Below, in pieces: positions 6,816 through 30,231 of a DNA stretch of 33,073 nt. The DNA is taken from IMG/VR virus record IMGVR_UViG_2879765931_000003, one strand, 5' to 3'. The first letter of the stretch is position 1. The number at the start of each line of letters is the position of its first letter. This stretch comes from a virus. Its lineage: Duplodnaviria; Heunggongvirae; Uroviricota; Caudoviricetes. The notes beneath the pieces are model-generated. The model was given only the letters and a program-made list of their open reading frames with translations, ran no database searches and was not told the origin of the DNA. The position numbers were made by a program, and so were the translations under genes.

Positions 6816-6858
6816 TGAGGTGTACTGGCAATAGCGGACACTACCATTTGTTCTTTTT

Positions 6859-7677
6859 TTAAGCAGCCATCTGATGATATTTTTCCCTGAAGGCAGCCGG
6901 GGAGATATTCCCCAGACGAGAGTGACGACGCTGACGATTGTAGAAAATCTCAATGTATTCCCGTATTACTGAGATGGCTTCATCCCGGTTATTAAAACGA
7001 TAGTGGCTCAGGCTCTCATTTTTCAGCGTTCCCCAGAAGCTTTCCATCGGAGCGTTGTCGTAACAGTTACCTTTACGCGACATTGATGTTTTCAGACCAA
7101 ACTGCTCCTGTATGACCCGGTAATCGTATGCGCAGTACTGTGAACCTCGATCAGAGTGGTGGATTAGCCCGGCAGGTGGGCGCTGGCTCCTGAGCGCCAT
7201 AAACAGGGCTTTACCTGTCAGCTCTTTTGTCATGCGCTCTCCCATGGCGTAGCCGACAATTTCGCACGTATAAACATCTTTGATGCCAGCGAGGTACAAC
7301 CATCCCTCCTGTGTGGCAACATACGTCAGGTCCGCCACCCAGACCTGATTTGGTGCTGTAGGAGCGAACGTCTGGTTCAGCAGATTTGGCGCAACTGGCA
7401 GATTGTGGTTCGGGTTCGTAGTCGCTCTGAACTTGCGTTTCTGCTTACAGCGTAGCCTCAGCTCCTTACGAAGACGTGCCAGTCGGTCACGACCAACGAT
7501 GATGCCATTCTCTGCCAGCTCCGTCTGGAGCCGCCGGGTTCCATATGTTTCGCGAGTGCGGATATGTGCCACCTTAATCTCCGGTTTTAGCCGCTCATCA
7601 CTTTGTTTTCTGTCTGAGGGTTCATGCTGTACCCAGTTGTAATAACCGCTCCTGGATACACCAAATACCTGACACAT
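6859..7677 (-). CDS. IS600 OrfB
   Basis: 272 aa DDE transposase. Confidence 0.88.
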   Translation of the reverse strand: MCQVFGVSRSGYYNWVQHEPSDRKQSDERLKPEIKVAHIRTRETYGTRRLQTELAENGIIVGRDRLARLRKELRLRCKQKRKFRATTNPNHNLPVAPNLLNQTFAPTAPNQVWVADLTYVATQEGWLYLAGIKDVYTCEIVGYAMGERMTKELTGKALFMALRSQRPPAGLIHHSDRGSQYCAYDYRVIQEQFGLKTSMSRKGNCYDNAPMESFWGTLKNESLSHYRFNNRDEAISVIREYIEIFYNRQRRHSRLGNISPAAFREKYHQMAA

Positions 7678-7712
7678 CGCTTCAATGGGAAATTGTTGTC
7701 GCCATTGTTCGA

Positions 7713-8015
7713 TTAACGCGTATTTTTCAGCGACTCCTGTGCAAAATACGCTGTTGCTTTTTTTAATATATCTCGCTCAAGGCGAGCTTCATTTAACGCC
7801 TTACGCAGTTGCAGAATTTCAGATTCCAGTTCAGCCAGCGTGCGGGAACCAGGAGTACCGAGCCCTTTTCTGGCGGCGGTAACCCATTGTCCTAAAGTGC
7901 CTTCAGGAAGAGATAATCGGGAAGCGCCTTCACTGATCGAAAGTTGATTTTCAAGAACCGTTCTGACAGCTTCGGCTTTGAACTCTTTAGAGTAACGTTG
8001 GGTTTTTCTGCTCAT
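7713..8015 (-). CDS. IS600 OrfA
   Basis: 100 aa, near-identical to the other copies. Confidence 0.88.
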   Translation of the reverse strand: MSRKTQRYSKEFKAEAVRTVLENQLSISEGASRLSLPEGTLGQWVTAARKGLGTPGSRTLAELESEILQLRKALNEARLERDILKKATAYFAQESLKNTR

Positions 8016-8177
8016 TATTAGCTCCTTCTGATGCCATTCTATTTCAGGAAGGAGTGTCCGTTAAACTCAGGCTACCTCAGACGTCCCGTATGATGGATAT
8101 GAAATCAAGACAATCACACATCCTGAACCGCCCCGGGAATCCTGGAGACTAAACTTCCTGAGAAAGAGGTAAACAGG

Positions 8178-8500
8178 ATGACTAAAAATACTCGTTTTTC
8201 CCCCGAAGTCCGTCAACGGGCAGTCCGTATGGTTCTGGAAAGTCAGGGCGAATATGACTCACAATGGGCGACAATTTGTTCCATTGCCCCAAAGATTGGC
8301 TGTACGCCGGAGACTCTGCGTGTCTGGGTTCGCCAGCATGAGCGGGATACCGGGGGCGGTGATGGAGGGCTCACCACCGCTGAACGTCAGCGTCTGAAAG
8401 AGCTGGAGCGTGAAAATCGTGAACTGCGCCGCAGTAACGATATCCTTCGCCAGGCTTCCGCTTATTTTGCGAAGGCGGAGTTCGACCGCCTCTGGAAAAA

Positions 8501-8504
<4 letters not shown>
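8178..8504 (+). CDS. IS629-like OrfA
   Basis: 108 aa HTH/leucine-zipper OrfA of the IS3 family. Confidence 0.82.
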
Positions 8505-9387
<883 letters not shown>

Positions 9388-9429
9388 GTTCACAGATAAA
9401 ACACTCTCCAGGAAACCCGGGGCGGTTCA

Positions 9430-9730: not shown

Positions 9731-10035
9731 TGACCACTTTTACCGACAAAGAACTGATTAAAGAAATTAAAGAGCGTATCAGCAGCCTTGACGTGCGAGA
9801 CGATATTGAGCGCCGTGCTTATGAAATCGCACTCCTATCTCTGGAAGTAGAACCAGATGAACGCGAAGCTTATGAATTATTCATGGAAAAGCGTTTTGGT
9901 GACTTAGTAGATCGTCGGAGAGCAAAAAACGGCGATAACGAATACATGGCATGGGATATGACTCTCGGTTGGATCGTCTGGCAGCAACGAGCTGGTATCC
10001 ATTTCTCAACAATGTCACAGCAAGAGGTGAAATAA
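9730..10035 (+). CDS. Hypothetical phage early (ea-region) protein
   Basis: 101-aa ORF, start overlaps the upstream stop (TAATG), same direction as xis and int. Confidence 0.45.
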   Translation: MTTFTDKELIKEIKERISSLDVRDDIERRAYEIALLSLEVEPDEREAYELFMEKRFGDLVDRRRAKNGDNEYMAWDMTLGWIVWQQRAGIHFSTMSQQEVK

Positions 10036-10092
10036 TGGAGCCATACAGCCTCACACTCGATGAGGCCTGTCATTTTCTCAAGATTGAAGTGG

Positions 10093-11296
<1,204 letters not shown>

Positions 11297-12294
11297 CTCT
11301 GTTCAGGTGGCCAAATTCAGTGTGCCACTTCAGATATCCAGACCGACTGCCATTAACTGGATACGCACAGGGCGTCTTCAGGCAACACGCAAAGATCCCA
11401 CTAAGAATAAATCTCCTTACCTCACAACACGACAAGCCTGCATTGCGGCTCTTCAGTCTCCGCTGCATACTGTCCAGGTGAGCGCGGGTGATGGCATAAC
11501 AGAGGAAAGAAAATGTCACTCTTCCGCAGAGGTGAAATATGGTACGCCAGTTTCACATTGCCGAACGGTAAAAGATTTAAACAGTCTCTTGGAACAAAGG
11601 ACAAAAGGCAGGCGACAGAACTCCATGACAAGCTAAAGGCTGAAGCATGGCGGGTCAGCAAACTTGGTGAAATACCTGATATAACGTTCGAGGAAGCGTG
11701 TGTCAGGTGGCTTGAAGAGAAAGCACATAAAAAATCACTGGACGATGACAAAAGCCGGATCGGATTCTGGCTTCAACATTTCGCAGGAATACAACTAAGA
11801 GACATTACTGAATCAAAAATTTATTCAGCAATGCAGAAAATGACGAACCGGCGTCATGAGGAAAACTGGAAACTCAGGGCAGAATCATGCAGAAAAAAAG
11901 GGAAACCTGTTCCAGAATACACGCCAAAACCAGCGTCCGTTGCAACGAAGGCTACGCATCTTTCATTTATAAAGGCCCTACTAAGAGCCGCAGAGCGTGA
12001 ATGGAAAATGCTGGATAAGGCACCAATTATTAAAGTGCCTCAACCAAAGAATAAACGGATCCGCTGGCTGGAGCCCCATGAAGCACAAAGGCTGATTGAT
12101 GAATGTCCGGAGCCATTAAAGTCTGTTGTTGAATTTGCACTGGCAACAGGCTTAAGACGCTCGAACATCATCAACCTTGAATGGCAACAAATAGATATGC
12201 AGCGCCGGGTGGCATGGATAAACCCGGAAGTGAGGTAGCCTGAGTTTAACGGACACTCCTTCCTGAAATAGAATGGCATCAGAAGGAGCTAATA

Positions 12295-12597
12295 ATGAGC
12301 AGAAAAACCCGACGTTACTCTAAAGAGTTCAAAGCCGAAGCTGTCAGAACGGTTCTTGAAAATCAACTTTCGATCAGTGAAGACGCTTCCCGATTATTCC
12401 TTCCTGAAGGCACTTTAGGACAATGGGTTACCGCCGCCAGAAAAGGGCTCGGTACTCCTGGTTCCCGCACGGTGGCTGAACTGGAATCTGAAATTCTGCA
12501 ACTGCGTAAGGCGTTAAATGAAGCTCGCCTTGAGCGAGATATATTAAAAAAAGCAACAGCGTATTTTGCACAGGAGTCGCTGAAAAATACGCGTTAA
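12295..12597 (+). CDS. IS600 OrfA
   Basis: 100 aa. Confidence 0.88.
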   Translation: MSRKTRRYSKEFKAEAVRTVLENQLSISEDASRLFLPEGTLGQWVTAARKGLGTPGSRTVAELESEILQLRKALNEARLERDILKKATAYFAQESLKNTR

Positions 12598-12632
12598 TCG
12601 AACAATGGCGACAACAATTTCCCATTGAAGCG

Positions 12633-13451
12633 ATGTGTCAGGTATTTGGTGTATCCAGGAGCGGTTATTACAACTGGGTACAGCATGAACCCTCAGACAG
12701 AAAACAAAGTGATGAGCGGCTAACACTGGAGATTAAGGTGGCACATATCCGCACTCGCGAAACATATGGAACCCGGCGGCTCCAGACGGAGCTGGCAGAG
12801 AATGGCATCATCGTTGGTCGTGACCGACTGGCACGTCTTCGTAAGGAGCTAAGGCTACGCTGTAAGCAGAAACGCAAGTTCAGAGCGACTACGAACCCGA
12901 ACCACAATCTGCCAGTTGCGCCAAATCTGCTGAACCAGACGTTCGCTCCTACAGCACCAAATCAGGTCTGGGTGGCGGACCTGACGTATGTTGCCACACA
13001 GGAGGGATGGTTGTACCTCGCTGGCATCAAAGATGTTTATACGTGTGAAATTGTCGGCTACGCCATGGGAGAGCGCATGACAAAAGAGCTGACAGGTAAA
13101 GCCCTGTTTATGGCGCTCAGGAGCCAGCGCCCACCTGCCGGGCTAATCCACCACTCTGATCGAGGTTCACAGTACTGCGCATACGATTACCGGGTCATAC
13201 AGGAGCAGTTTGGTCTGAAAACATCAATGTCGCGTAAAGGTAACTGTTACGACAACGCTCCGATGGAAAGCTTCTGGGGAACGCTGAAAAATGAGAGCCT
13301 GAGCCACTATCGTTTTAATAACCGGGATGAAGCCATCTCAGTAATACGGGAATACATTGAGATTTTCTACAATCGTCAGCGTCGTCACTCTCGTCTGGGG
13401 AATATCTCCCCGGCAGCCTTCAGGGAAAAATATCATCAGATGGCTGCTTAA
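12633..13451 (+). CDS. IS600 OrfB
   Basis: 272 aa. Confidence 0.88.
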   Translation: MCQVFGVSRSGYYNWVQHEPSDRKQSDERLTLEIKVAHIRTRETYGTRRLQTELAENGIIVGRDRLARLRKELRLRCKQKRKFRATTNPNHNLPVAPNLLNQTFAPTAPNQVWVADLTYVATQEGWLYLAGIKDVYTCEIVGYAMGERMTKELTGKALFMALRSQRPPAGLIHHSDRGSQYCAYDYRVIQEQFGLKTSMSRKGNCYDNAPMESFWGTLKNESLSHYRFNNRDEAISVIREYIEIFYNRQRRHSRLGNISPAAFREKYHQMAA

Positions 13452-13956
13452 AAAAGAACAAATGGTAGTGTCCGCTATTGCCAGTACACCTCAAAGAGAG
13501 TAAATCAAACCGCGCAATTGGCGTTGCGCTGAATGATACTGCATGTCGCGTATTGAAAAAACAAATCGGAAATCATCACCGTTGGGTATTTGTGTACAAG
13601 GAAAGCTGTACCAAACCAGACGGAACGAAAGCGCCAACAGTAAGGAAGATGCGGTATGACGCAAACACAGCCTGGAAAGCGGCGCTGAGACGGGCTGGTA
13701 TTGATGATTTCAGATTTCACGACTTGAGACACACCTGGGCAAGTTGGCTGGTTCAAGCCGGAGTCCCGTTATCAGTGTTACAGGAAATGGGAGGCTGGGA
13801 GTCTATCGAAATGGTTCGTCGATATGCTCACCTCGCACCTAATCACCTTACCGAACACGCACGGCAAATAGACTTGATTCTGAACCCATCGGTCCCAAAT
13901 TTGTCCCAGTCAAGAAATAAGGAAGGTACTAATGATGTGTAACTTATTGATTTTAA

Positions 13957-14290: not shown

Positions 14291-15463
14291 ATGCATATGA
14301 TTGAAATTAACAGTTTATTATTAATAACATCCGTGATATTGATGTCGTTATTAGCTGTGGGGTTATTTGATAAAATTTCCCCAATAAATCTTGTTGAGCA
14401 CGGCAGGAATAATCAAATAGATGGAATGCGGGGGTTCTTAGCAATTTTCGTGCTTATTCATCACGCAGCAATTTGGAATGGATACTTGTCATCTGGAGTA
14501 TGGGAAGCACCTTCATCAAATCTGTTAGCAAATTTAGGCCAAGTTGGTGTGTCATTCTTTTTTATGATTACTGGTTATCTGTTCTTTTCAAAGATTATCT
14601 CTGGAGATCAGGACTGGACAAGGCTTTATGTATCAAGATTACTACGATTAACCCCAATGTTCATAGTTAGCCTATGTCTCATTTTTATCATTGTAGGTTT
14701 TAAGTCTGGATGGAGAATGCAGGTATCCACAGAAGAGCTTTTTGTGTCAATAATGAAGTGGTTGCCATTCACTGCGCTAGGTATGCCGAACATTAATGAC
14801 GTAAAAGATTCATTTACTATCAATGCCGCTGTAACATGGACACTTGTATATGAATGGTTCTTTTATTTTTCTCTTCCGGTAATTTCCGCGCTCATAAAAA
14901 GAAAAGTCAGTATTTACATGGTTATGATTAGCGCAATATCGCTATTTGTTTTCATTTTATTTTTCAGTAAAATACACATAGCATCATTTCTTTTTGGGCT
15001 CCTGGCATTTTTGCTAAATAAATCAAAGATAGTCAATGGAATTGCCAAAGCAAAAGTAACACCAATTATAATAACTGCGATAATGGTTTTTGAAATGACG
15101 TATTTCAAAACAACTTACGCACCGCTACCACTGATTCTTTGTGGAATAACATTTATCATTATCGCATCAGGTTGTGATTTGTATGGAATATTAAGATTAA
15201 ATATAACCAGAAAGCTAGGAGAAACTACCTACAGCGTTTACCTTCTGCATGGGATATTCCTTTATTGCCTAATGACGTGGATTATTCCTAATAATTACAC
15301 TGAAAATACATTTATCATACTGGTAAGCACAACTGCATTTCTTATTACGTTCACATCATGCCTAACTTTTAAATTAATAGAGACGCCATTCATCAAATTA
15401 ACAAAACAAACCACAACTTTAGTAAAAGAATTAATACCCACATTAACAAACAACAATCAATAA
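14291..15463 (+). CDS. Acyltransferase family 3 integral membrane protein; candidate O-antigen O-acetyltransferase (Oac-like) conversion gene
   Basis: 390 aa, multi-TM; N-terminal ...DGMRGFLAIFVLIHH... and ...SFFFMITGYLF... motifs of acyltransferase-3 enzymes; occupies the cargo slot between att/int and the tailspike; AT-rich. The exact start (14291 or 14297) is uncertain. Confidence 0.78.
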   Translation: MHMIEINSLLLITSVILMSLLAVGLFDKISPINLVEHGRNNQIDGMRGFLAIFVLIHHAAIWNGYLSSGVWEAPSSNLLANLGQVGVSFFFMITGYLFFSKIISGDQDWTRLYVSRLLRLTPMFIVSLCLIFIIVGFKSGWRMQVSTEELFVSIMKWLPFTALGMPNINDVKDSFTINAAVTWTLVYEWFFYFSLPVISALIKRKVSIYMVMISAISLFVFILFFSKIHIASFLFGLLAFLLNKSKIVNGIAKAKVTPIIITAIMVFEMTYFKTTYAPLPLILCGITFIIIASGCDLYGILRLNITRKLGETTYSVYLLHGIFLYCLMTWIIPNNYTENTFIILVSTTAFLITFTSCLTFKLIETPFIKLTKQTTTLVKELIPTLTNNNQ

Positions 15464-15516: not shown

Positions 15517-16224
15517 TTATATTAGTCTGGTAATGCTAAATGCAAACGAACTGGAGATTCCTGCCCCGCTAAGCGTATTGCGCAGGGTCACCCTAAATGT
15601 ATCTACGCCAATATAAGTAACATCACAACTAACTGAATCAGGCGCAGATATAGGTGTTATCTGCACAATATAACCGCTAGCAACTGCTGCGAGCGGATGA
15701 GAAAAGCTAACATCATACACACCTGTAGAAACCACGTTAACCGATGAAACACCAGTAGCAACGTCGATACTACCATTGGCGTTAATTTTTCCCGAGCGTG
15801 TGACTGACAATGCAGAAGCCGATGTTACCTTACTGGTTGTTTCTGTAAAAACACACCCAATGTCAACTACCTCGCAATTAGCTCCTGTTATCCAGTATGG
15901 TCGTTCTGCACTTGGCTGATAATCCCCTGCGCTCTGGAACGTTGTGCCGTTGAGTATGACTGTAACTTTTCCCCCACCTGAGCTTGTTACTTGAATATTC
16001 GTGTGCGTGTATCTTGCACTGCTCACGCGATGAAAATTTCCACCGTTTATAACCACAGTTACAGGGCGCGTCCCAGTATTATCTATAGCAAGGTCTGCCC
16101 CCCCGGCATTAGCCTCAAAGTATGGGTTGTTTAATACCAAAGCGCACGAACCGTTAAGGCCATTTATAGCTAATTGCGCACCACCTGTACTGGAATCCCC
16201 CTGAGTACCATTTCCTTCACAAGT
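15517..16224 (-). pseudogene. Tailspike / tail-fibre receptor-binding protein, C-terminal ~235-aa fragment (N-terminus removed by IS600)
   Basis: Reading frame open from the IS600 boundary to the stop at 15517; Gly/Ser/Thr/Asn-rich beta-strand-like repeats; position downstream of the ejection genes as for P22 gene 9. Confidence 0.5.
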
Positions 16225-16266
16225 TGAGGTGTACTGGCAATAGCGGACACTACCATTTGTTCTTTT

Positions 16267-17085
16267 TTAAGCAGCCATCTGATGATATTTTTCCCTGAAG
16301 GCAGCCGGGGAGATATTCCCCAGACGAGAGTGACGACGCTGACGATTGTAGAAAATCTCAATGTATTCCCGTATTACTGAGATGGCTTCATCCCGGTTAT
16401 TAAAACGATAGTGGCTCAGGCTCTCATTTTTCAGCGTTCCCCAGAAGCTTTCCATCGGAGCGTTGTCGTAACAGTTACCTTTACGCGACATTGATGTTTT
16501 CAGACCAAACTGCTCCTGTATGACCCGGTAATCGTATGCGCAGTACTGTGAACCTCGATCAGAGTGGTGGATTAGCCCGGCAGGTGGGCGCTGGCTCCTG
16601 AGCGCCATAAACAGGGCTTTACCTGTCAGCTCTTTTGTCATGCGCTCTCCCATGGCGTAGCCGACAATTTCGCACGTATAAACATCTTTGATGCCAGCGA
16701 GGTACAACCATCCCTCCTGTGTGGCAACATACGTCAGGTCCGCCACCCAGACCTGATTTGGTGCTGTAGGAGCGAACGTCTGGTTCAGCAGATTTGGCGC
16801 AACTGGCAGATTGTGGTTCGGGTTCGTAGTCGCTCTGAACTTGCGTTTCTGCTTACAGCGTAGCCTCAGCTCCTTACGAAGACGTGCCAGTCGGTCACGA
16901 CCAACGATGATGCCATTCTCTGCCAGCTCCGTCTGGAGCCGCCGGGTTCCATATGTTTCGCGAGTGCGGATATGTGCCACCTTAATCTCCGGTTTTAGCC
17001 GCTCATCACTTTGTTTTCTGTCTGAGGGTTCATGCTGTACCCAGTTGTAATAACCGCTCCTGGATACACCAAATACCTGACACAT
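16267..17085 (-). CDS. IS600 OrfB
   Basis: 272 aa. Confidence 0.88.
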   Translation of the reverse strand: MCQVFGVSRSGYYNWVQHEPSDRKQSDERLKPEIKVAHIRTRETYGTRRLQTELAENGIIVGRDRLARLRKELRLRCKQKRKFRATTNPNHNLPVAPNLLNQTFAPTAPNQVWVADLTYVATQEGWLYLAGIKDVYTCEIVGYAMGERMTKELTGKALFMALRSQRPPAGLIHHSDRGSQYCAYDYRVIQEQFGLKTSMSRKGNCYDNAPMESFWGTLKNESLSHYRFNNRDEAISVIREYIEIFYNRQRRHSRLGNISPAAFREKYHQMAA

Positions 17086-17448
17086 CGCTTCAATGGGAAA
17101 TTGTTGTCGCCATTGTTCGATTAACGCGTATTTTTCAGCGACTCCTGTGCAAAATACGCTGTTGCTTTTTTTAATATATCTCGCTCAAGGCGAGCTTCAT
17201 TTAACGCCTTACGCAGTTGCAGAATTTCAGATTCCAGTTCAGCCAGCGTGCGGGAACCAGGAGTACCGAGCCCTTTTCTGGCGGCGGTAACCCATTGTCC
17301 TAAAGTGCCTTCAGGAAGAGATAATCGGGAAGCGCCTTCACTGATCGAAAGTTGATTTTCAAGAACCGTTCTGACAGCTTCGGCTTTGAACTCTTTAGAG
17401 TAACGTTGAACCGCCCCGGGTTTCCTGGAGAGTGTTTTATCTGTGAAC

Positions 17449-18331
<883 letters not shown>

Positions 18332-18335
<4 letters not shown>

Positions 18336-18658
18336 TTTTTCCAGAGGCGGTCGAACTCCGCCTTCGCAAAATAAGCGGAAGCCTGGCGAAGGATATCGTT
18401 ACTGCGGCGCAGTTCACGATTTTCACGCTCCAGCTCTTTCAGACGCTGACGTTCAGCGGTGGTGAGCCCTCCATCACCGCCCCCGGTATCCCGCTCATGC
18501 TGGCGAACCCAGACACGCAGAGTCTCCGGCGTACAGCCAATCTTTGGGGCAATGGAACAAATTGTCGCCCATTGTGAGTCATATTCGCCCTGACTTTCCA
18601 GAACCATACGGACTGCCCGTTGACGGACTTCGGGGGAAAAACGAGTATTTTTAGTCAT
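18332..18658 (-). CDS. IS629-like OrfA
   Basis: 108 aa, identical to copy 1. Confidence 0.82.
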
Positions 18659-18783
18659 CCTGTTTACCTCTTTCTCAGGAAGTTTAGTCTCCAGGATTCC
18701 CGGGGCGGTTCACGTTGGGTTTTTCTGCTCATTATTAGCTCCTTCTGATGCCATTCTATTTCAGGAAGGAGTGTCCGTTAAAC

Positions 18784-20514
18784 TCAGGCTACCTCAACTC
18801 TCTTTTCAATAGGGTCAAGGTTTTTCATCCCGCCAAGATCTTCTGCCACCTGTTTGAGCATTGACCTTGTTGATGGCGCATCAATTTTTGCACCTGCAGG
18901 CATCGCCTTTTCAACATTGCGATAAAGCTGGTCGCTTCGTTTCATCAGCGCAGACATTCTTCCATTGACCGTATCAATAAACTTGTCGCTCATACCAAGA
19001 GCATCTTTTGCACCGGAAACGCGATCAATTATCTCACCCGCGCCCTGTGCTAGCTGCCTGATTGCTTCATTTTCCTGCACCTGTAGAGCAGAACCCGCAC
19101 GGGACTTGATTGCTTGCTCAACTGCCTTGTATTGCTCGTTCCCGGAAAAGTGTGAAGGGAGTAATGAATCAACATTAAGCCTTTCAGCAGACTCCAGAAC
19201 TTCAGCCTGAGGATTGATATCTAGTTCATCAAGCGATGAAGCGAGATTTGGCCTTTTTTGTGCTGCTACTGTGCGAACGACTTCCTCTGGGTTCTTCGTC
19301 GCAGGCGTCATTGGTACACCTTGTGCTACTCTTGCCTCTGCGGCATGAACCGCAGGATTTGTTGCTGCAGCGGCATCACCGGAGAATGGTGATGTTTCTG
19401 TTGGCGCAGTGGTCGCTCTCTGTGCAGATGTTTTATTGCCACTAATTATATTTGATGCACCACGAACACCACGGGTAACGCCATTTATCAGGCCATGCGT
19501 AGCAATGCTAAGTCCGGCATTAATAGCGGCATTTTCGGCAAAATCACCCCGTTGATTCGCCGCGTCAGCGAGAGAACCAATGACCATGTTTCCAGCTACA
19601 CCTGCTCCAGGAACAAGATAACCGCCTATTGACTCTCCAGCTTGCGCGTAGGGGTCTGTCGGTCTGTCTACTGGACGATAAACATCATCCAATACTTTTG
19701 GCCCCCCAAGCCCCTGACTGATTGCATTAATCAGACTTGCGCCACCCTGCAATACGTCAAATGGTATGTTTACCAGACCACGACCAGCCTGTTCTGCAAT
19801 TTGCCCTGCACTTTGACCACCAGTGAGCCAATCGCCAGCTTGTTGCATCAATGATGGTTCTTCCCGTGTTGGTGCATTATTGGCCTGATTAACTGTTTGT
19901 TGCTGAACAGGTTTCGGTGCGACAGAACTTACGGGTTGAGGTGGCTGCTGACTGGCTGCCTGCTGCTCAATCTGAGCAAATGGATTATTTGGGTCTGACT
20001 GCACACCTGATGCCGATACTTGTTCGGATGACTGTACTTCCAGTTGTGCAAACGGGTTGTTAGGGTCTTGCTGAGGATGTACCTTTGCAGAGGTGGCGCG
20101 CTGTTCGACTGTTGAGTCTGTCACCGGGTCACCAGCCCATTGAGCAAAGCGATCATCAACGTAACCGCGGCCTTCAGGTCCTGGCGTATATTCACCACGC
20201 TTTGCCTTCATAACGTTGCCGGGACCGTCGTGATAAGCCTGAAGAGCGTCACGCCAGTTACCAAACTGCTGGTACATCTTTGCCAGATAGCGCGCGCCAG
20301 CGTCAGCCTGATATTCGGGGTTTTGCATTTGCTCATCGGTATAACCCATATCACGCCATGTCCCAGGCATGACCTGAGTCAATCCTACAGCCCCGGCGGA
20401 GCTTACTGCGGCAGGGTTGTAAGAAGACTCCTTGGCACCCAGTGCAGTCATCAACCCTTCTGGCACACCGTAACGTGCGCCAGCCTGCTCTAACAAATCA
20501 CGGTAATTAGCCAT
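18784..20514 (-). CDS. Ejection (injection) protein at the P22 gp16 position, with an N-terminal lytic-transglycosylase (SLT)-like domain; C-terminus replaced by the IS600 end
   Basis: 576 aa; ...[28 protein letters not shown]...[11 protein letters not shown]... resembles SLT motifs; the last codons and the stop lie within the IS600 terminal repeat. Confidence 0.6.
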
Positions 20515-21846
20515 TTACTGCCCCAAAGATGGAAGATATCCGTAGCGATTAATGAAGTCGATTGACAGCTCGGGGTGCTGCTTCAGGTAATCTATAGAAG
20601 CCTGAGGCGCTTCCACTCGCTTGATACCGTTTTGCTGAACGTACTTACCAACCGCCTCATTACGCTTCTGGTTGAGCGTGTTCAGGATGACGCCAGCGTT
20701 GCGACGAAAGGACTCCTCGCTCTGCGAGTTCTGCAGCGAACCAACAGCCTGGTCGAGCTTTTTGCCCTCGGCATCAGAAAGTGCGCCCATGCCTCGCATG
20801 GCCTGAACCGCTGTCAGGTATGCTTGTGATTTAAAGGTATCAAGTCGTGCCTGAGTGTCTGCAGCCTGTGAGCCTGGAACGTTGGGGATTACTCCACGTA
20901 AGCCTGTAATGCTCTTAAGTGAAGGAGAACTAACGATATCGTTCAGAGTGAACATGCTGGTTGTGAGGGTGTTGATGCCGTCTTTGTAGCCATCATTTAG
21001 CGCTTGCTGCTTCTGCTGCAACTGCTGGTTGTTGGCTGCTATGCGGCTCTGTATTTCCTGGCGCTTCAGGTCGTTAGTTTCTGCTGATAGCATCCGGTCA
21101 AGGCGCTTATTTTCGTTGTTAATGCGGTTTGTTTCTGCGTCCAGATTAATGCGCTGCTGACCTAAATTCGCCTGGATATCTTGTCCGCGCATTGTGATTG
21201 CCTGATTCCGAGCGGCGGTTTGCGAATCCAGATCCTGACCGCGCATGGTAACCTGGCGACCCTGCATTTTATCCTGTAGGTCAAAGTATTTTTCGGGCCC
21301 GAGACTGTTCATCCCCAGGTGATCGACAAATTCGCCGAACTGCCGCGGGTTCTGTTGGTACATCTGAGCGACGTCATGAGGATTAACGCCAACACGAGCT
21401 AACTCACCGGCGTTGTTTTGCAGCCATGATTGCATTGCTTCTGGAGACGATGACGCAAGGCGTGCGCCAGCCGCTAAGGTGCCGATAGAATTACGCTGCT
21501 CTTCATCAATGAATCCCATGCCTTTACGAACGGATTCAATCTGGTCTGGATATTGAGTAGCCAACTGACGCAAAGCACCGCGATCACCAGACGCATAAGC
21601 ATTAGCGTACGCCTGCTGAAATTCTTTCTGCCGCTGAGCCTGCTTTTCCTGCTGAAAAACACCCGCAATACCTGAAAGACCTTGCAAAGCAGTCAGCCCA
21701 ACATTGTTAGCGCCTGAACGCTCAATATCATTGTTCTGCCTGATAAGCTGAAGCGTATTGCCGATGTCATTTACGCTCGGAGCGTTTGAGTTGACGCCGC
21801 CGATACCAGCCAACAATCCGCCGTTTGTTCCTTGCCAAGTAGCCAT
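20515..21846 (-). CDS. Ejection protein at the P22 gp20 position
   Basis: 443 aa, coiled-coil/Gln-rich, synteny between gp7-like and gp16-like genes. Confidence 0.6.
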   Translation of the reverse strand: MATWQGTNGGLLAGIGGVNSNAPSVNDIGNTLQLIRQNNDIERSGANNVGLTALQGLSGIAGVFQQEKQAQRQKEFQQAYANAYASGDRGALRQLATQYPDQIESVRKGMGFIDEEQRNSIGTLAAGARLASSSPEAMQSWLQNNAGELARVGVNPHDVAQMYQQNPRQFGEFVDHLGMNSLGPEKYFDLQDKMQGRQVTMRGQDLDSQTAARNQAITMRGQDIQANLGQQRINLDAETNRINNENKRLDRMLSAETNDLKRQEIQSRIAANNQQLQQKQQALNDGYKDGINTLTTSMFTLNDIVSSPSLKSITGLRGVIPNVPGSQAADTQARLDTFKSQAYLTAVQAMRGMGALSDAEGKKLDQAVGSLQNSQSEESFRRNAGVILNTLNQKRNEAVGKYVQQNGIKRVEAPQASIDYLKQHPELSIDFINRYGYLPSLGQ

Positions 21847-21855
21847 GATTACCCC

Positions 21856-22548
21856 TTAAAACAACGAGCCAAGCAATCCGATACCAGCACCAATACCAGC
21901 GCCCCAAGGCGTTGATGTTCCCAAAAGGCTGGCAAGACCTGCACCGGCAATCGCACCAGACGTGCCACCGCTAATTGCAGTCTGAAGACTTGATGGTTTA
22001 TTGGCATTAGCAGCGGCAAGAGCTGCGCTTTGCTGTGCAATGCTGCTCATGTTGTTGGCGTACGTCTGCCCGGCGTTTGCCTGACCTTGCAGCGCACCAA
22101 GCCCAACGTTTGCCAGATTGTTGTAATTGCTCATCTGATTTGATAACCAAGACTGACCGAGTGTCGGCGCGATCGTAGCCAGTTGATTGCTTGTGGCTGT
22201 CGAACCAAGTCCACCCGTCGCCTCCGCAGCAGCAAGACTCTGGTAACGCGCCTGCCCTGCAAGGTCTTTATACTGCTTAGAGTTGTAATACTGATTAAGT
22301 GCCTGCCCCTGACCTTCTAAACTGGAAAGGTTCTGAAGCTGGTTAACATACTGCTCCGCAAGAGGCGTGAACGGAGCAAGGTTTTTCATGATCGTCTGCC
22401 ACTGCTGATTTTGCAGGTCTGCAGCATACTTCTGGGCTTCTGCTGCATACTTTGCGCTTTTATCAGAACTGCCACCTTTCCCGCCTTTTTCAGGGCAATA
22501 AGGTTCCTCGCCGCGCAGTTTTCTGCCCAGCTTAAATGCATATAACAT
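21856..22548 (-). CDS. Ejection protein, P22 gp7-like
   Basis: 230 aa, MLYAFKLGRKLRGEEPYCPEKGGKGGS..., Gly/Ala-rich C-terminal hydrophobic tail. Confidence 0.7.
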   Translation of the reverse strand: MLYAFKLGRKLRGEEPYCPEKGGKGGSSDKSAKYAAEAQKYAADLQNQQWQTIMKNLAPFTPLAEQYVNQLQNLSSLEGQGQALNQYYNSKQYKDLAGQARYQSLAAAEATGGLGSTATSNQLATIAPTLGQSWLSNQMSNYNNLANVGLGALQGQANAGQTYANNMSSIAQQSAALAAANANKPSSLQTAISGGTSGAIAGAGLASLLGTSTPWGAGIGAGIGLLGSLF

Positions 22549-22550
22549 GG

Positions 22551-23009
22551 CTATCTCCCGTGATTCAGGAAGTCGATTAGTTCTTCGCGTGTGGCGCTGT
22601 AAAAAGTCACGTCATCCACGCCTTTGAAGTATTTCTTGATGGTTCCTACACGCTTAAGGCCAATCATTGCGCAGTACATCTGACCGTGTCGGAATTTGCG
22701 TGCAGCGAACGATGTTACGCACTGAACGGTGGTGTTAGTCAGAATGTATCGCCAGAACGCCAGCCCAATTTCCTTGCTGAAGCCGCGAATCTCTGGCAGG
22801 TACATGGCGTGGCAATCTAATGTCAGCGGCTGAATCTCCTGATAGTAAACAATGCCGCCAAACTGACCGTGCACGTTCACCTCAAAGTAACGGCATTCAG
22901 GTTTGTAGTCGTATCCATCACCGTTGTTGCTCCCGGCGATAATGTCAGGGTGATTTCCGACTGCTTCTATCAGGTCGATGTTTCGCGTTGGTTTGAATGT
23001 AATCATCAC
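22551..23009 (-). CDS. P22 gp14-like protein (assigned by position)
   Basis: 152 aa between the needle and gp7-like genes; assignment by synteny only. Confidence 0.45.
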
Positions 23010-23854
23010 TGCTCCGCGATTATCTTGATGGTTGTGGCAGTAAACGCCGCACCATTCGACTGAATGGTTAACGTACTGCCATTTGTGGCAAGAAAGCCGT
23101 CTTTATCCACGCTGAAGAACGTAGCTAACAGGATGTTGTCGGTTGTTGTCGCCGCATTACGACTGCTGACCAGTGTGTCAGGAACAGAGTCGGAAAAGGT
23201 TAGCTGCATTGACCTGTTGGCGGTTCCGCTGGGCCACGTGCCGACAATCGACAACTTGAAGAGCAGGGTTTTGTTCTCGTTGAACACAACCATCTTGTTG
23301 TTAACGGTGTCGAAGAATGGTGCCAACGAGCCGGATGACGGTGTGAGCGTTTTCAGCAGGCTAACAAGGTTGGTCGGCGCTGTCGGGATGGTTACAGATA
23401 CACCAGAGTAAACAACCTCTGACTTCTTGCGTGTGGTTGCATACTCCAGAGCATCGATGCGCGTTTCATGGTCTGAAACCTGCGACTCCAGCGACTGAAC
23501 TCTTGTGTCAAGCGACGAAATATCGCTTTCATTCTGAGCTATTCGTGTTTCATGGTCCTGAAGAGTTGATTCTGCCTGTCTGATTCGCTCCTCATGATTA
23601 ACAAGCGTTGCTTCCGCAGCAGAAATTCGCTGCTCATGGTCAGCGAGAATCACATCCTGCTCATCGTTCCTGACCTGTGCATCATAAGCGCCCTGTCCGG
23701 CCTCGTTGGCTTTGTTAGCCACGTTACCAACATCAGTGCCCTGTGCGATAACGTAAAGCAGATACGACTGCGAGAAGATATTGCGTGGAAGGACTGATGT
23801 ATCGAGCCGCGTAGCTTGGATGATTACCGGCACATTGAGATTCGAATCAGCCAT
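23006..23854 (-). CDS. Tail needle (P22 gp26-like) with an extended C-terminal domain
   Basis: [43 protein letters not shown]... N-terminus and heptad coiled-coil; 282 aa versus ~233 aa for P22 gp26, the extra residues being C-terminal. Confidence 0.8.
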
Positions 23855-28244: not shown

Positions 28245-30231
28245 TTATTGAGGTGTCTCGGCTACTCCGCCGGAGGGGATTTGAACTTGACGCATAAGAT
28301 TCGCGAAATCCATGCGTTGTGAATGAGTCTGGTCTGCATCTTTAAGAAGCAGCTCAGCGTTAGCACGAGCATCTTTGCTGCGCTGTTGCTGGAATTGACC
28401 TACGAGCCTGAGGTACTCACGCAGTTCTGCCTGCTTGTCGAGGTCCATATTGTTGAATATTTCTGCAATCTTCGCGGCGTTGAGTTGGTTTTGGGCTTCA
28501 ACCTTGGCAGCTTCAACCTGAATCTGCGCCTGTTGGTTCTCTGCCTTGAGCAATTCAGCCTGACCTTGCAGAAGGATACCCTGCGCCTGAATTTGCTCTG
28601 CTGATGGCTGCTGCGGCTGTTGTTGTGCCTGCTGCACCATCTCCATCTCTTCAGGTGTTTCTGGTTTCTTCAGCCCCATCATCACCAGTTGCTTGTTCGC
28701 GTACTCTCGCATCATCTCGACGCCTTTACCGTCAAGCAGCGTGAAGTATTGCAGCATCAGCATCTGGAACTCTGGAGTACCTTGCGGAACCTTGGTGAGC
28801 AACTCCTGAATCTCTGCGCGGTTCTGTTCCTTCATACTCTGGAAGGATGGCCCAACGTCTGTATAGCACTCATATCGACCGCGAATGTCGTTGAGTGTGA
28901 CCACATTGCCGGACTGGTAATCGACAACTTGCGCATAGAGTTGAACGTCTTTCTCGCTTCCATCTTCAAGTGTCAGCGTTACATGACGAGGAACGTCATA
29001 AATATCGTTGACCATTGAGGCATAAATCTCGCCATCACGTCGCATTGCGGTAGCCAGGTTATCCTGAAACACGTATGTCTCAAGGTCTGCCCGCATGTTC
29101 AGTTGATTGACGGTATCAAAAGCGACCTGACCATTTGCCGCCTGCGCATCCACGCCAAGACTAGCCACTTCTTTCACTGCGTTGGTGGCAGCCTCAAGCA
29201 TGTAAGCGTTGGCTTGCGGCACTTCAGGGTTTTCCATGTAGGAGATTGGACCAATCGGCAGGTCGTTACCGTTTTCATCGGTCCTGTTCTGCAGATAGTA
29301 CGGATAGTCATCATTTCCGCCGTACATGTATTCGTAGCCTTCGATTTGCTCAGGGAAGAAGGTCGGTTTCTTCTTCGGTGACCGAGCAACAATATCGGCG
29401 TTGAACGACATAATCATGTTACGAAGGCGTTGACCGTCTTTCGTCAGCCTTACCACACCCTCGTAGCACTCCTTGTCACCAGCGAATGACCATTCGCCAT
29501 ACACTGGAACGATTGGAATATGCTCTCCGGCTATCTTCTCGCGGTCTTTCAGTATCTGCGTACAGGTGATGATCGACTTATACACACGCCGACGCTTCAC
29601 CTTGCGCTCTGCTACCTTAATGAATCCACGATTAGCCAGGTCGTCGATGACGTCTTTGATATCCTGCTGGTAATAGCTGACCGGCTCACCTGTCAGCGGG
29701 TCGCGGTAGATGAAGACCTTCTCCTTCTCCTCTTCTACCTCGTAATACTCAGCGACGTAGACGACATCATTCGACACCCACGGGAATAGCCATGTATCGT
29801 TAGGATTCTGGAAAGATGGCAGGGTATCCGGGTCAATACCGTAATCCTCTGCGAACTCTTTCCAGCCATTGCGCGACAAGGCGTTAATCACCGTGCAGTG
29901 CTTAGCGTCGCTCTTATCCATCTGCTTGCTGTTGGCGTCTCATATGACGTGTGAGCAGGCTTCATGGATTGGCAGGCGTCGGATTACCTGATTGTTGCTT
30001 GTTGGATCGTTGTCTTCGTACTGCGTGACCAGACGCCATGCACCAACGCCTGACTCTATCTGCTCACGAACGCCAACGTTAACGGCAATCTTTGCCGTGT
30101 TATGGCGCATATCAGTACGATACATCCCCATCAATACATCGGCTGCATCAGGATTAGCGCCGTCTTTGGGTCGGAAGAGAACGTCGACAGGGTTCCGGCG
30201 CATCTCTGCGACCAGTTTCCTGACCCCCGGG
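28245..30231 (-). pseudogene. Portal protein, P22 gp1-like, with an in-frame TGA (29940-29942) and the 5' end removed by IS911
   Basis: ...[31 protein letters not shown]...[28 protein letters not shown]... is continuous in one frame; the IS911 terminus abuts at 30232. Confidence 0.88.

Follow-up and report, generated by a model that had tools for sequence, protein, structure and literature searches.

The DNA analysed here, a stretch of 33,073 nucleotides that we call the window, matches the NCBI chromosome CP026871.1 at 100% identity over 17.7 kb. The ORF list and its translation place the peptide strings quoted in an earlier note on this DNA in an open reading frame of 576 codons on the minus strand, at 18784..20514. 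Pfam searches identified, in minus-strand order, a tail needle gene, a DUF2824 (gp14-like) gene, a P22_gp7 gene and an Inj_translocase (gp20) gene, followed by the ORF under study, which is the third gene of a gp7-gp20-gp16 cluster and lies upstream of the tailspike gene. The coordinates and the gp7 and gp20 homologues upstream therefore bear out the placement of the 576-aa protein in the position of P22 gp16, from which the earlier note had started. The genes and the segments of the ORF are the following:

23006-23854 (-), tail needle gene
22551-23009 (-), DUF2824/gp14-like gene (Pfam)
21856..22548 (-), gp7-type ejection protein gene, intact ORF of 230 aa (Pfam PF25688 P22_gp7, E = 3e-134)
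20515..21846 (-), gp20-type ejection protein gene, intact ORF of 443 aa, directly upstream of the 576-aa ORF (Pfam PF16928 Inj_translocase, E = 1.1e-67)
18797..20514 (-), native part of a gp16-type ejection gene, matching codons 1-573 of an ancestral 911-codon gene (homology to phage Sf101 ORF13)
20185..20496 (-), SLT domain (family 1 lytic transglycosylase, GH23-type), residues 7-110 (Pfam PF01464, phmmer against the PDB, AF2/Foldseek)
20428..20430 (-), GAG codon of Glu29, the predicted catalytic acid, in a K-E-S motif (alignment with Slt70 and T7 gp16)
19966..20067 (-), Gln/Pro-rich linker with two DPNNPFAQ(L/I)E copies at residues 150-159 and 174-183 (translation)
19456..19854 (-), block conserved with P22 gp16, residues 221-353, with two moderately hydrophobic Gly-rich segments (BLASTP, precomputed Pfam match PF26808 Phage_P22_gp16, hydropathy scan)
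18784..18796 (-), end of the ORF supplied by IS600, from the third base of V573 through E574-V575-A576 to the TGA stop

The N-terminal residues carry the SLT domain. The earlier note had read an SLT-like lytic transglycosylase N-terminus from motif strings and had proposed a profile search and a structure prediction, and both agree with its reading. The Pfam match to PF01464 (SLT) has an E-value of 1.9e-25 and a score of 89.2 bits, against a curated cut-off of 21.3 bits, and covers residues 7-110 and profile positions 2-110 of 117. A phmmer search of the PDB returned Escherichia coli Slt70 as the best match (E = 3e-10), followed by MltC, MltE/EmtA, Pseudomonas aeruginosa Slt, a phage tape-measure SLT domain and T7 gp16. 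In the phmmer alignment, K28-E29-S30 of the query lies over Q477-E478-S479 of Slt70, G44-L-T-Q47 over the GLMQ motif and A93-Y-H-D-G97 over AYNAG. The catalytic glutamate is retained, as Glu29 is aligned with Glu478 of Slt70, the established catalytic acid, and with Glu37 of T7 gp16, reportedly the catalytic residue of that protein according to Moak and Molineux. When the query was aligned with 17 other SLT-bearing homologues, some of them ~50% identical overall, residues K28, E29, S30, G44, L45, Q47, A93, Y94 and G97 were invariant in all 18 sequences, and the K-E-S, G-L-T/A-Q and A-Y-H/N-x-G motifs were invariant or near-invariant.

The AF2 model of the protein is helical over most of residues 1-130, with pLDDT values of 75-89 that exclude a loop at residues 31-50. 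A Foldseek search of the PDB with this model returned lytic transglycosylases (Slt, LtgA, MltD, MltF, Cj0843) as all of its top 21 matches, mostly with probabilities of 0.9-1.0, and with E-values of 4e-3 or weaker for a query that was the whole, mostly low-confidence model. The N-terminal domain is accordingly modelled with the goose-lysozyme-like, all-helical fold expected of an SLT domain. Beyond residue 135, most residues have pLDDT values below 50 (23 sequences), and the model does not provide a fold for the gp16 body. The Gln/Pro-rich linker also has low AF2 confidence; its DPNNPFAQ(L/I)E copies are conserved in the consensus of the SLT-bearing homologues.

The translation and a hydropathy scan revealed neither a signal peptide nor a hydrophobic stretch at the N-terminus of the 576-aa protein. 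With a 19-residue Kyte-Doolittle average, the segments of highest hydropathy are Gly-rich and comprise residues 247-265, 298-316 and 802-820, the last of them in the Sf101 protein and absent from the 576-aa copy. A classical transmembrane helix was considered and rejected, as the highest of these averages reaches only 1.2.

Among intact relatives, ORF13 of Shigella phage Sf101, a serotype-converting phage, is the closest (KJ832078; protein AII27837.1). It has 911 residues and is called ‘transglycosylase’ in GenBank. Over residues 1-573, the window protein is identical to it at 567 of 573 positions (99%), and the homologue of Escherichia phage APC_JM3.2 is 98.3% identical over the same residues. 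The window shares with both phages the gene order of gp14-like gene, gp7, gp20 and third gene, as well as the SLT domain, the linker and the P22-gp16 block. It differs from them in having lost the last 338 residues, the small ORF located where P22 has sieA and the beginning of the tailspike, and in ending with the IS600-encoded residues E-V-A.

P22 gp16 itself (609 aa) has the matching genomic position, and its residues 53-189 are 81% identical to the window protein over ~135-137 residues (BLASTP, E = 1e-67). PF26808 is listed for the 576-aa protein among precomputed hits, and our local Pfam copy did not report it. In P22 gp16, however, a segment of ~35-50 residues replaces the SLT domain, and the remaining body is unlike that of the window protein by BLASTP. 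The comparison with P22-like ejection proteins, which the earlier note had also proposed, thus yields a near-identical relative in Sf101 and a block shared with P22. Published work describes P22 gp16 as membrane-associated and as acting where the conduit reaches the inner membrane (PMC10883804), and the virion lysin of P22 is reported to be gp4 (PMC5380687).

A different assignment is suggested by existing names. The PHROG family phrog_21143, ‘lytic tail fiber protein’, matches the 576-aa protein end to end, RefSeq gives the same product name to Sf101 ORF13 (NC_027398), and tape-measure proteins and tail-tip proteins are known that contain SLT domains (PDB 9b45 gp41; phrog_1506). The protein could on these grounds be an external, tail-associated lysin and not an internal ejection protein. 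Against this, the conserved gene order with gp7 and gp20, the block shared with P22 gp16 at 81% identity, and PF26808 all point to an ejection protein. The family phrog_770, ‘DNA transfer protein’, matches as well, with E = 9e-107 (8e-163 for the full-length Sf101 protein). The tail of P22-type phages has a defined composition of gp4, gp10, the gp26 needle and the gp9 tailspike, and homologues or remnants of each of the four are separately present in the window. Finally, the phrog_21143 profile has exactly 576 positions and was apparently built on the truncated form, so that its name carries little weight. We regard a tail-associated lysin as highly improbable, and a note of caution is due for annotation, as both the PHROG family and the RefSeq name ‘lytic tail fiber protein’ seem to stem from, or to fit, the truncated form.

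The 3′ end of the ejection protein gene is set by insertion sequences, for which the features are:

16225..18796 (-), IS600 (IS3 family), interrupted; 1263 bp after removal of the nested IS629 and a 3-bp duplication (identity to the other copies in the window)
17407..18712 (-), IS629, nested in IS600 orfA, with a 3-bp duplication (ACG) and a split orfB (full-length identity to annotated IS629)
15517..16224 (-), C-terminal remnant of the tailspike gene, with its first ~345 codons gone (homology to the Sf101 tailspike)

The protein resembles Sf101 ORF13 up to residue 573 of 911, where Sf101 continues with ...EKRVFRAVNPGK... and the window with ...EKRVEVA-stop; in the DNA, the match to Sf101 and APC_JM3.2 stops at window position 18797. 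The left inverted repeat of IS600, TGAGGTAGCCTGAGTTTAACGG, starts at 18796, which is the last position of codon V573. From this base on, the minus strand reads TGAGGTAGCCTGAGTTTAACGGACAC..., the IS600 left inverted repeat, followed by the start of IS600 orfA, ATGAGCAGAAAAACCCAACG. Two further statements of the earlier note, that the last codons (...VEVA*) come from the end of IS600 and that the native C-terminus is lost, are therefore correct. With 573 of 911 ancestral residues kept and the last 338 gone, the protein is incomplete as a gp16-type ejection protein; by its sequence, the 576-aa ORF is a gene fragment and does not count as a functional member of that group.

This IS600 shares 99.2-99.9% identity with the other three copies that the window contains, both of its ends begin with TGAGGT, and matching loci in E. 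coli are annotated ‘IS3-like element IS600 family transposase’. Just 84 bp of it adjoin the truncated gene. They are followed by a complete IS629, which starts with TGAACCGCCCCGGG... at 18712 and runs down to 17407, and the rest of IS600 extends from 17403 to 16225. Along its whole length, the IS629 has 98.9% identity to Stx phage copies that are annotated ‘insertion sequence: IS3 family IS629’. It measures 1306 bp, compared with the usual IS629 length of 1310 bp, which is consistent with the split orfB. The transposase ORF nearest to the truncated gene (18332-18658) is the orfA of IS629; IS629 was nevertheless rejected as the adjacent element because the 84 bp of IS600 intervene.

No target duplication flanks the IS600 copy: the flanking triplets are AGT and ACT, and do not form the 3-bp duplication of a simple insertion. 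On the far side of IS600, homology to Sf101 starts again partway through the tailspike gene (L001 position 9237 equals window position 16158; 91.5% identity). About 2.45 kb of phage DNA are gone in between, comprising the last 338 codons of the ejection protein gene, a small ORF in the position of P22 sieA and the first ~345 codons of the tailspike gene. The lack of a target duplication, taken together with this gap, indicates that the junction arose by an IS-associated deletion or by recombination between two IS600 copies, and a simple insertion is disfavoured by the sequence.

What the intact protein would do can be approached through T7 gp16. Both are the third and largest of their ejection proteins and have an SLT domain at their very N-terminal end. 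The T7 protein resides inside the head, and its N-terminal lytic transglycosylase is required for the genome to enter through highly cross-linked murein; once ejected, the protein forms part of a trans-envelope conduit (PMC8954989, PMC5380687). BLASTP aligned residues 2-119 of the window protein with residues 10-139 of T7 gp16 (E = 2e-11, 28% identity), placing E29 over E37. The protein also matches phrog_342 with E = 1.8e-24 and an envelope of residues 3-238, which had hinted at the T7 ‘molecular tape’ region being common to both proteins. This was rejected, as an hhalign comparison of the family alignment with residues 1-335 of T7 gp16 (probability 94.7%) confines the similarity to residues 3-121, aligned with 11-141. 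Since the similarity is restricted to the SLT domain, the family is better described, on present evidence, as probably working like T7 gp16 than as a member of the T7 gp16 family. The two also differ in build: T7 gp16 has 1318 residues and is part of an ordered core stack, whereas the ejection proteins of P22-like phages are smaller and are reported to lack a core stack (PMC8954989).

The bacterial enzymes Slt70, MltC, MltE/EmtA and P. aeruginosa Slt resemble the phage domain in the sequence of the catalytic domain, in the predicted fold and in their E-S, GLMQ-like and AYNxG-like motifs. These enzymes are, however, exported by way of a signal peptide or as lipoproteins and have accessory domains of their own, whereas the phage SLT domain has no signal and would reach the periplasm only through ejection from the virion.

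By analogy with T7 and P22, the following sequence of events may be proposed for the ancestral 911-aa protein, which would consist of the SLT domain, the Gln/Pro-rich linker and a P22 gp16-type body. The intact protein would be packaged in the head together with gp7 and gp20 and, upon infection, leave through the tail and enter the periplasm. In that compartment the SLT domain, with Glu29 as the predicted catalytic acid, would cut the MurNAc-GlcNAc bond and open a local hole in the peptidoglycan, while the gp16 body might contribute to assembling the conduit for the DNA at the inner membrane, an arrangement that would be the same as in T7 gp16. Local cutting of peptidoglycan during DNA injection is, by this analogy, the most likely role of the intact protein. 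The earlier note had considered it plausible that an ejection protein with a murein-cleaving domain serves to penetrate the cell wall, which is reasonable, given T7 gp16; the truncated copy in the window could not serve this purpose, and the idea is not new.

A point against the mechanism is that P22 itself has no SLT domain, so that the module may be dispensable. Both P22 and Sf6 are reported to be without it (PMC8954989), and near-identical gp16 bodies occur with non-SLT N-termini (in the proteins P0016, P0021 and P0010), which shows that the domain is not essential to the body. One could therefore imagine a catalytically dead module that has been kept for folding or docking. Such a structural role is hard to reconcile with the strict conservation of the catalytic glutamate and of all three signature motifs in homologues down to ~50% overall identity, the pattern expected of an active enzyme, and we consider it very unlikely. 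An ejected, murein-cutting enzyme remains our preferred reading of the intact protein.

The surroundings of the gene are those of a decayed prophage. The portal protein (558 residues) and the integrase (241 residues) are truncated, only the C-terminal third of the tailspike is present, and IS600 occurs four times and IS629 twice in the window. At 14291-15463, the gene for the O-antigen acyltransferase is intact, and if the prophage remnant is retained for anything, it is for this intact O-antigen acetyltransferase gene. The truncated gene and IS629 also occur in other genomes, where the chromosomal psiF-phoA region comes directly after them, reflecting further IS-mediated rearrangement, and related genomes are more eroded, with a gp7 of 202 aa and a needle of 265 aa. 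In a public assembly collection, 573 blocks contain exactly this 576-aa sequence, and the six places shown are NCBI assemblies. The best-matching clusters, one of them of 571 aa and 100% identity, are named ‘lytic transglycosylase domain-containing protein, partial [Shigella flexneri]’ by NCBI. The protein family and the truncated copy are already in public annotation, and there is nothing new at the locus itself.

Taken together, the ORF is very probably an IS600-truncated pseudogene of an Sf101-like, P22-type (Lederbergvirus) third ejection protein in an S. flexneri prophage, the intact form of which would be an ejected, murein-cutting gp16. The truncated 576-aa product is most likely non-functional, since a signal peptide and the last 338 residues are missing and the prophage it belongs to is unable to make virions; without a signal peptide or a hydrophobic N-terminus, a product made in the cell could not reach the murein. 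That selection has kept the 576-aa protein, as a domesticated lytic transglycosylase or a membrane-active fragment useful to Shigella, is very unlikely: the ORF is open up to the IS with every SLT motif kept, its sequence is identical across the 573 blocks and the adjacent gp7, gp20, needle and hub ORFs are still open, but the identical copies and the shared IS junction explain the wide occurrence by clonal descent, a cytoplasmic product could not contact murein, the gene ends a late operon in a window among whose listed, not individually annotated ORFs no late regulator or lysis genes were recognised, and the related genomes with shortened gp7 and needle show that erosion has gone further. 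The locus is of little importance in itself, being one more IS-eroded phage gene in an S. flexneri prophage remnant.

Of wider interest is the distribution of the SLT segment. In database searches, SLT and PF26808 were frequently combined in proteins from prophages of E. coli, Cronobacter, Klebsiella, Serratia, Shimwellia and Pluralibacter, and intact SLT-bearing relatives are found in the isolated phages Sf101, APC_JM3.2, Dewey and Huey. Residues 1 to ~205, that is the SLT domain and the linker with the two DPNNPFAQ repeats, are near 100% identical on at least three unrelated gp16 bodies, namely those of P0025 (875 aa), of P0046 (797 aa) and of the Sf101 type (911 aa). Conversely, the Sf101-type body, at 89-96% identity, is also found behind short, non-enzymatic N-termini: P0010 has a P22-like start, MMKVTANGKTFTFPDG..., and P0016 and P0021 start with MAKAWKDVIASPQYQAL.... 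The occurrence of the same segment on unrelated bodies, and of similar bodies with other N-termini, argues for an exchangeable unit, and we lean towards regarding the SLT-plus-linker segment as a mobile N-terminal cassette of P22-like gp16 proteins.

According to a 2022 review, the SLT domain is absent from P22-like phages. This generalisation does not hold for the group of Sf101, APC_JM3.2, IME10, Dewey and Huey. An explicit description of an SLT-bearing gp16 in P22-like phages was not found in the literature searched, which did not extend to Casjens and Thuman-Commike (2011), and the Sf101 genome paper makes no mention of one. The cassette behaviour across P22-like ejection proteins is the sole aspect that we consider mildly novel, and it is independent of the truncated locus.

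Some P22-like phages carry a predicted murein hydrolase in the style of T7 gp16 on their third ejection protein, a feature that the recent review overlooks. If the cassette reading is true, these phages would offer a natural series with and without the domain, in isogenic-like pairs, for studying the role of a virion murein hydrolase in the entry of podovirus DNA. It would also provide an argument for an ancestral, SLT-first architecture common to the third ejection proteins of the T7 and P22 types.

The IS600 element beside the truncated gp16-type ejection protein gene is itself interrupted by an IS629 copy lying within its orfA, and further members of the IS3 family are found elsewhere in the window:

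970-2233, further IS600 copy
6816-8079, second IS600
8124-9429, second IS629
12231-13493, further IS600 copy
16225-18796, IS600 beside the truncated gene
17407-18712, IS629 nested in this IS600, 84 bp from its left end

The nested IS629 is flanked by a clean 3-bp duplication (ACG). At 1306 bp it falls short of the 1310 bp of annotated copies, and two separate ORFs take the place of a single orfB. The second IS600 and second IS629 are separated by only about 44 bp. Such a density of IS3-family elements is unusually high, and provides ample substrates for the deletion observed at the gp16/tailspike junction.

Rearranged copies of this region occur in other NCBI genomes, presumably of S. flexneri. 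In the loci L004-L008 (locus coordinates ~9800-11500), the truncated gene and IS629 are followed directly by the chromosomal genes psiF-phoA-iraP-ddlA, where the window instead continues with the remainder of IS600, the remnant of the tailspike gene and oac. IS recombination has split or rearranged the prophage remnant in these lineages; in some of them, gp7 is also reduced to 202 aa and the needle to 265 aa.

The truncation appears to have entered the databases as well. The PHROG profile phrog_21143 comprises exactly 576 positions and matches the truncated 576-aa protein from end to end, which suggests that the truncated form was the basis of this family. The family is called “lytic tail fiber protein”, as is ORF13 of phage Sf101, the intact relative, in RefSeq (NC_027398); the label gives a wrong impression of an internal ejection protein. 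Three records of phage IME10 have no annotated feature under a region 99.5% identical to residues 1–183, the SLT cassette, which suggests that the gene call was missed or mis-started there.

Within this cassette, the Gln/Pro-rich linker that joins the SLT domain to the gp16 body contains a short repeat:

19966-20067, minus strand, two DPNNPFAQ(L/I)E copies (residues 150–183)

The copies are spaced 24 residues apart and are kept in the consensus of the SLT-bearing homologues; they are possibly a docking motif.

Three further genes of the window bear on the state of the prophage:

11513-12238, plus strand, phage integrase, shortened to 241 aa
14291-15463, plus strand, intact O-antigen Acyl_transf_3 gene (390 aa)
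28245-29921, minus strand, portal gene, shortened to 558 aa

IS elements adjoin both shortened genes, and the shortening of portal and integrase confirms that the prophage can neither make particles nor excise. The acyltransferase gene, which adjoins the truncated tailspike, shares ~91% DNA identity with the O-acyltransferase B region of Sf101. A lysogenic-conversion gene is retained intact as the virion genes decay.
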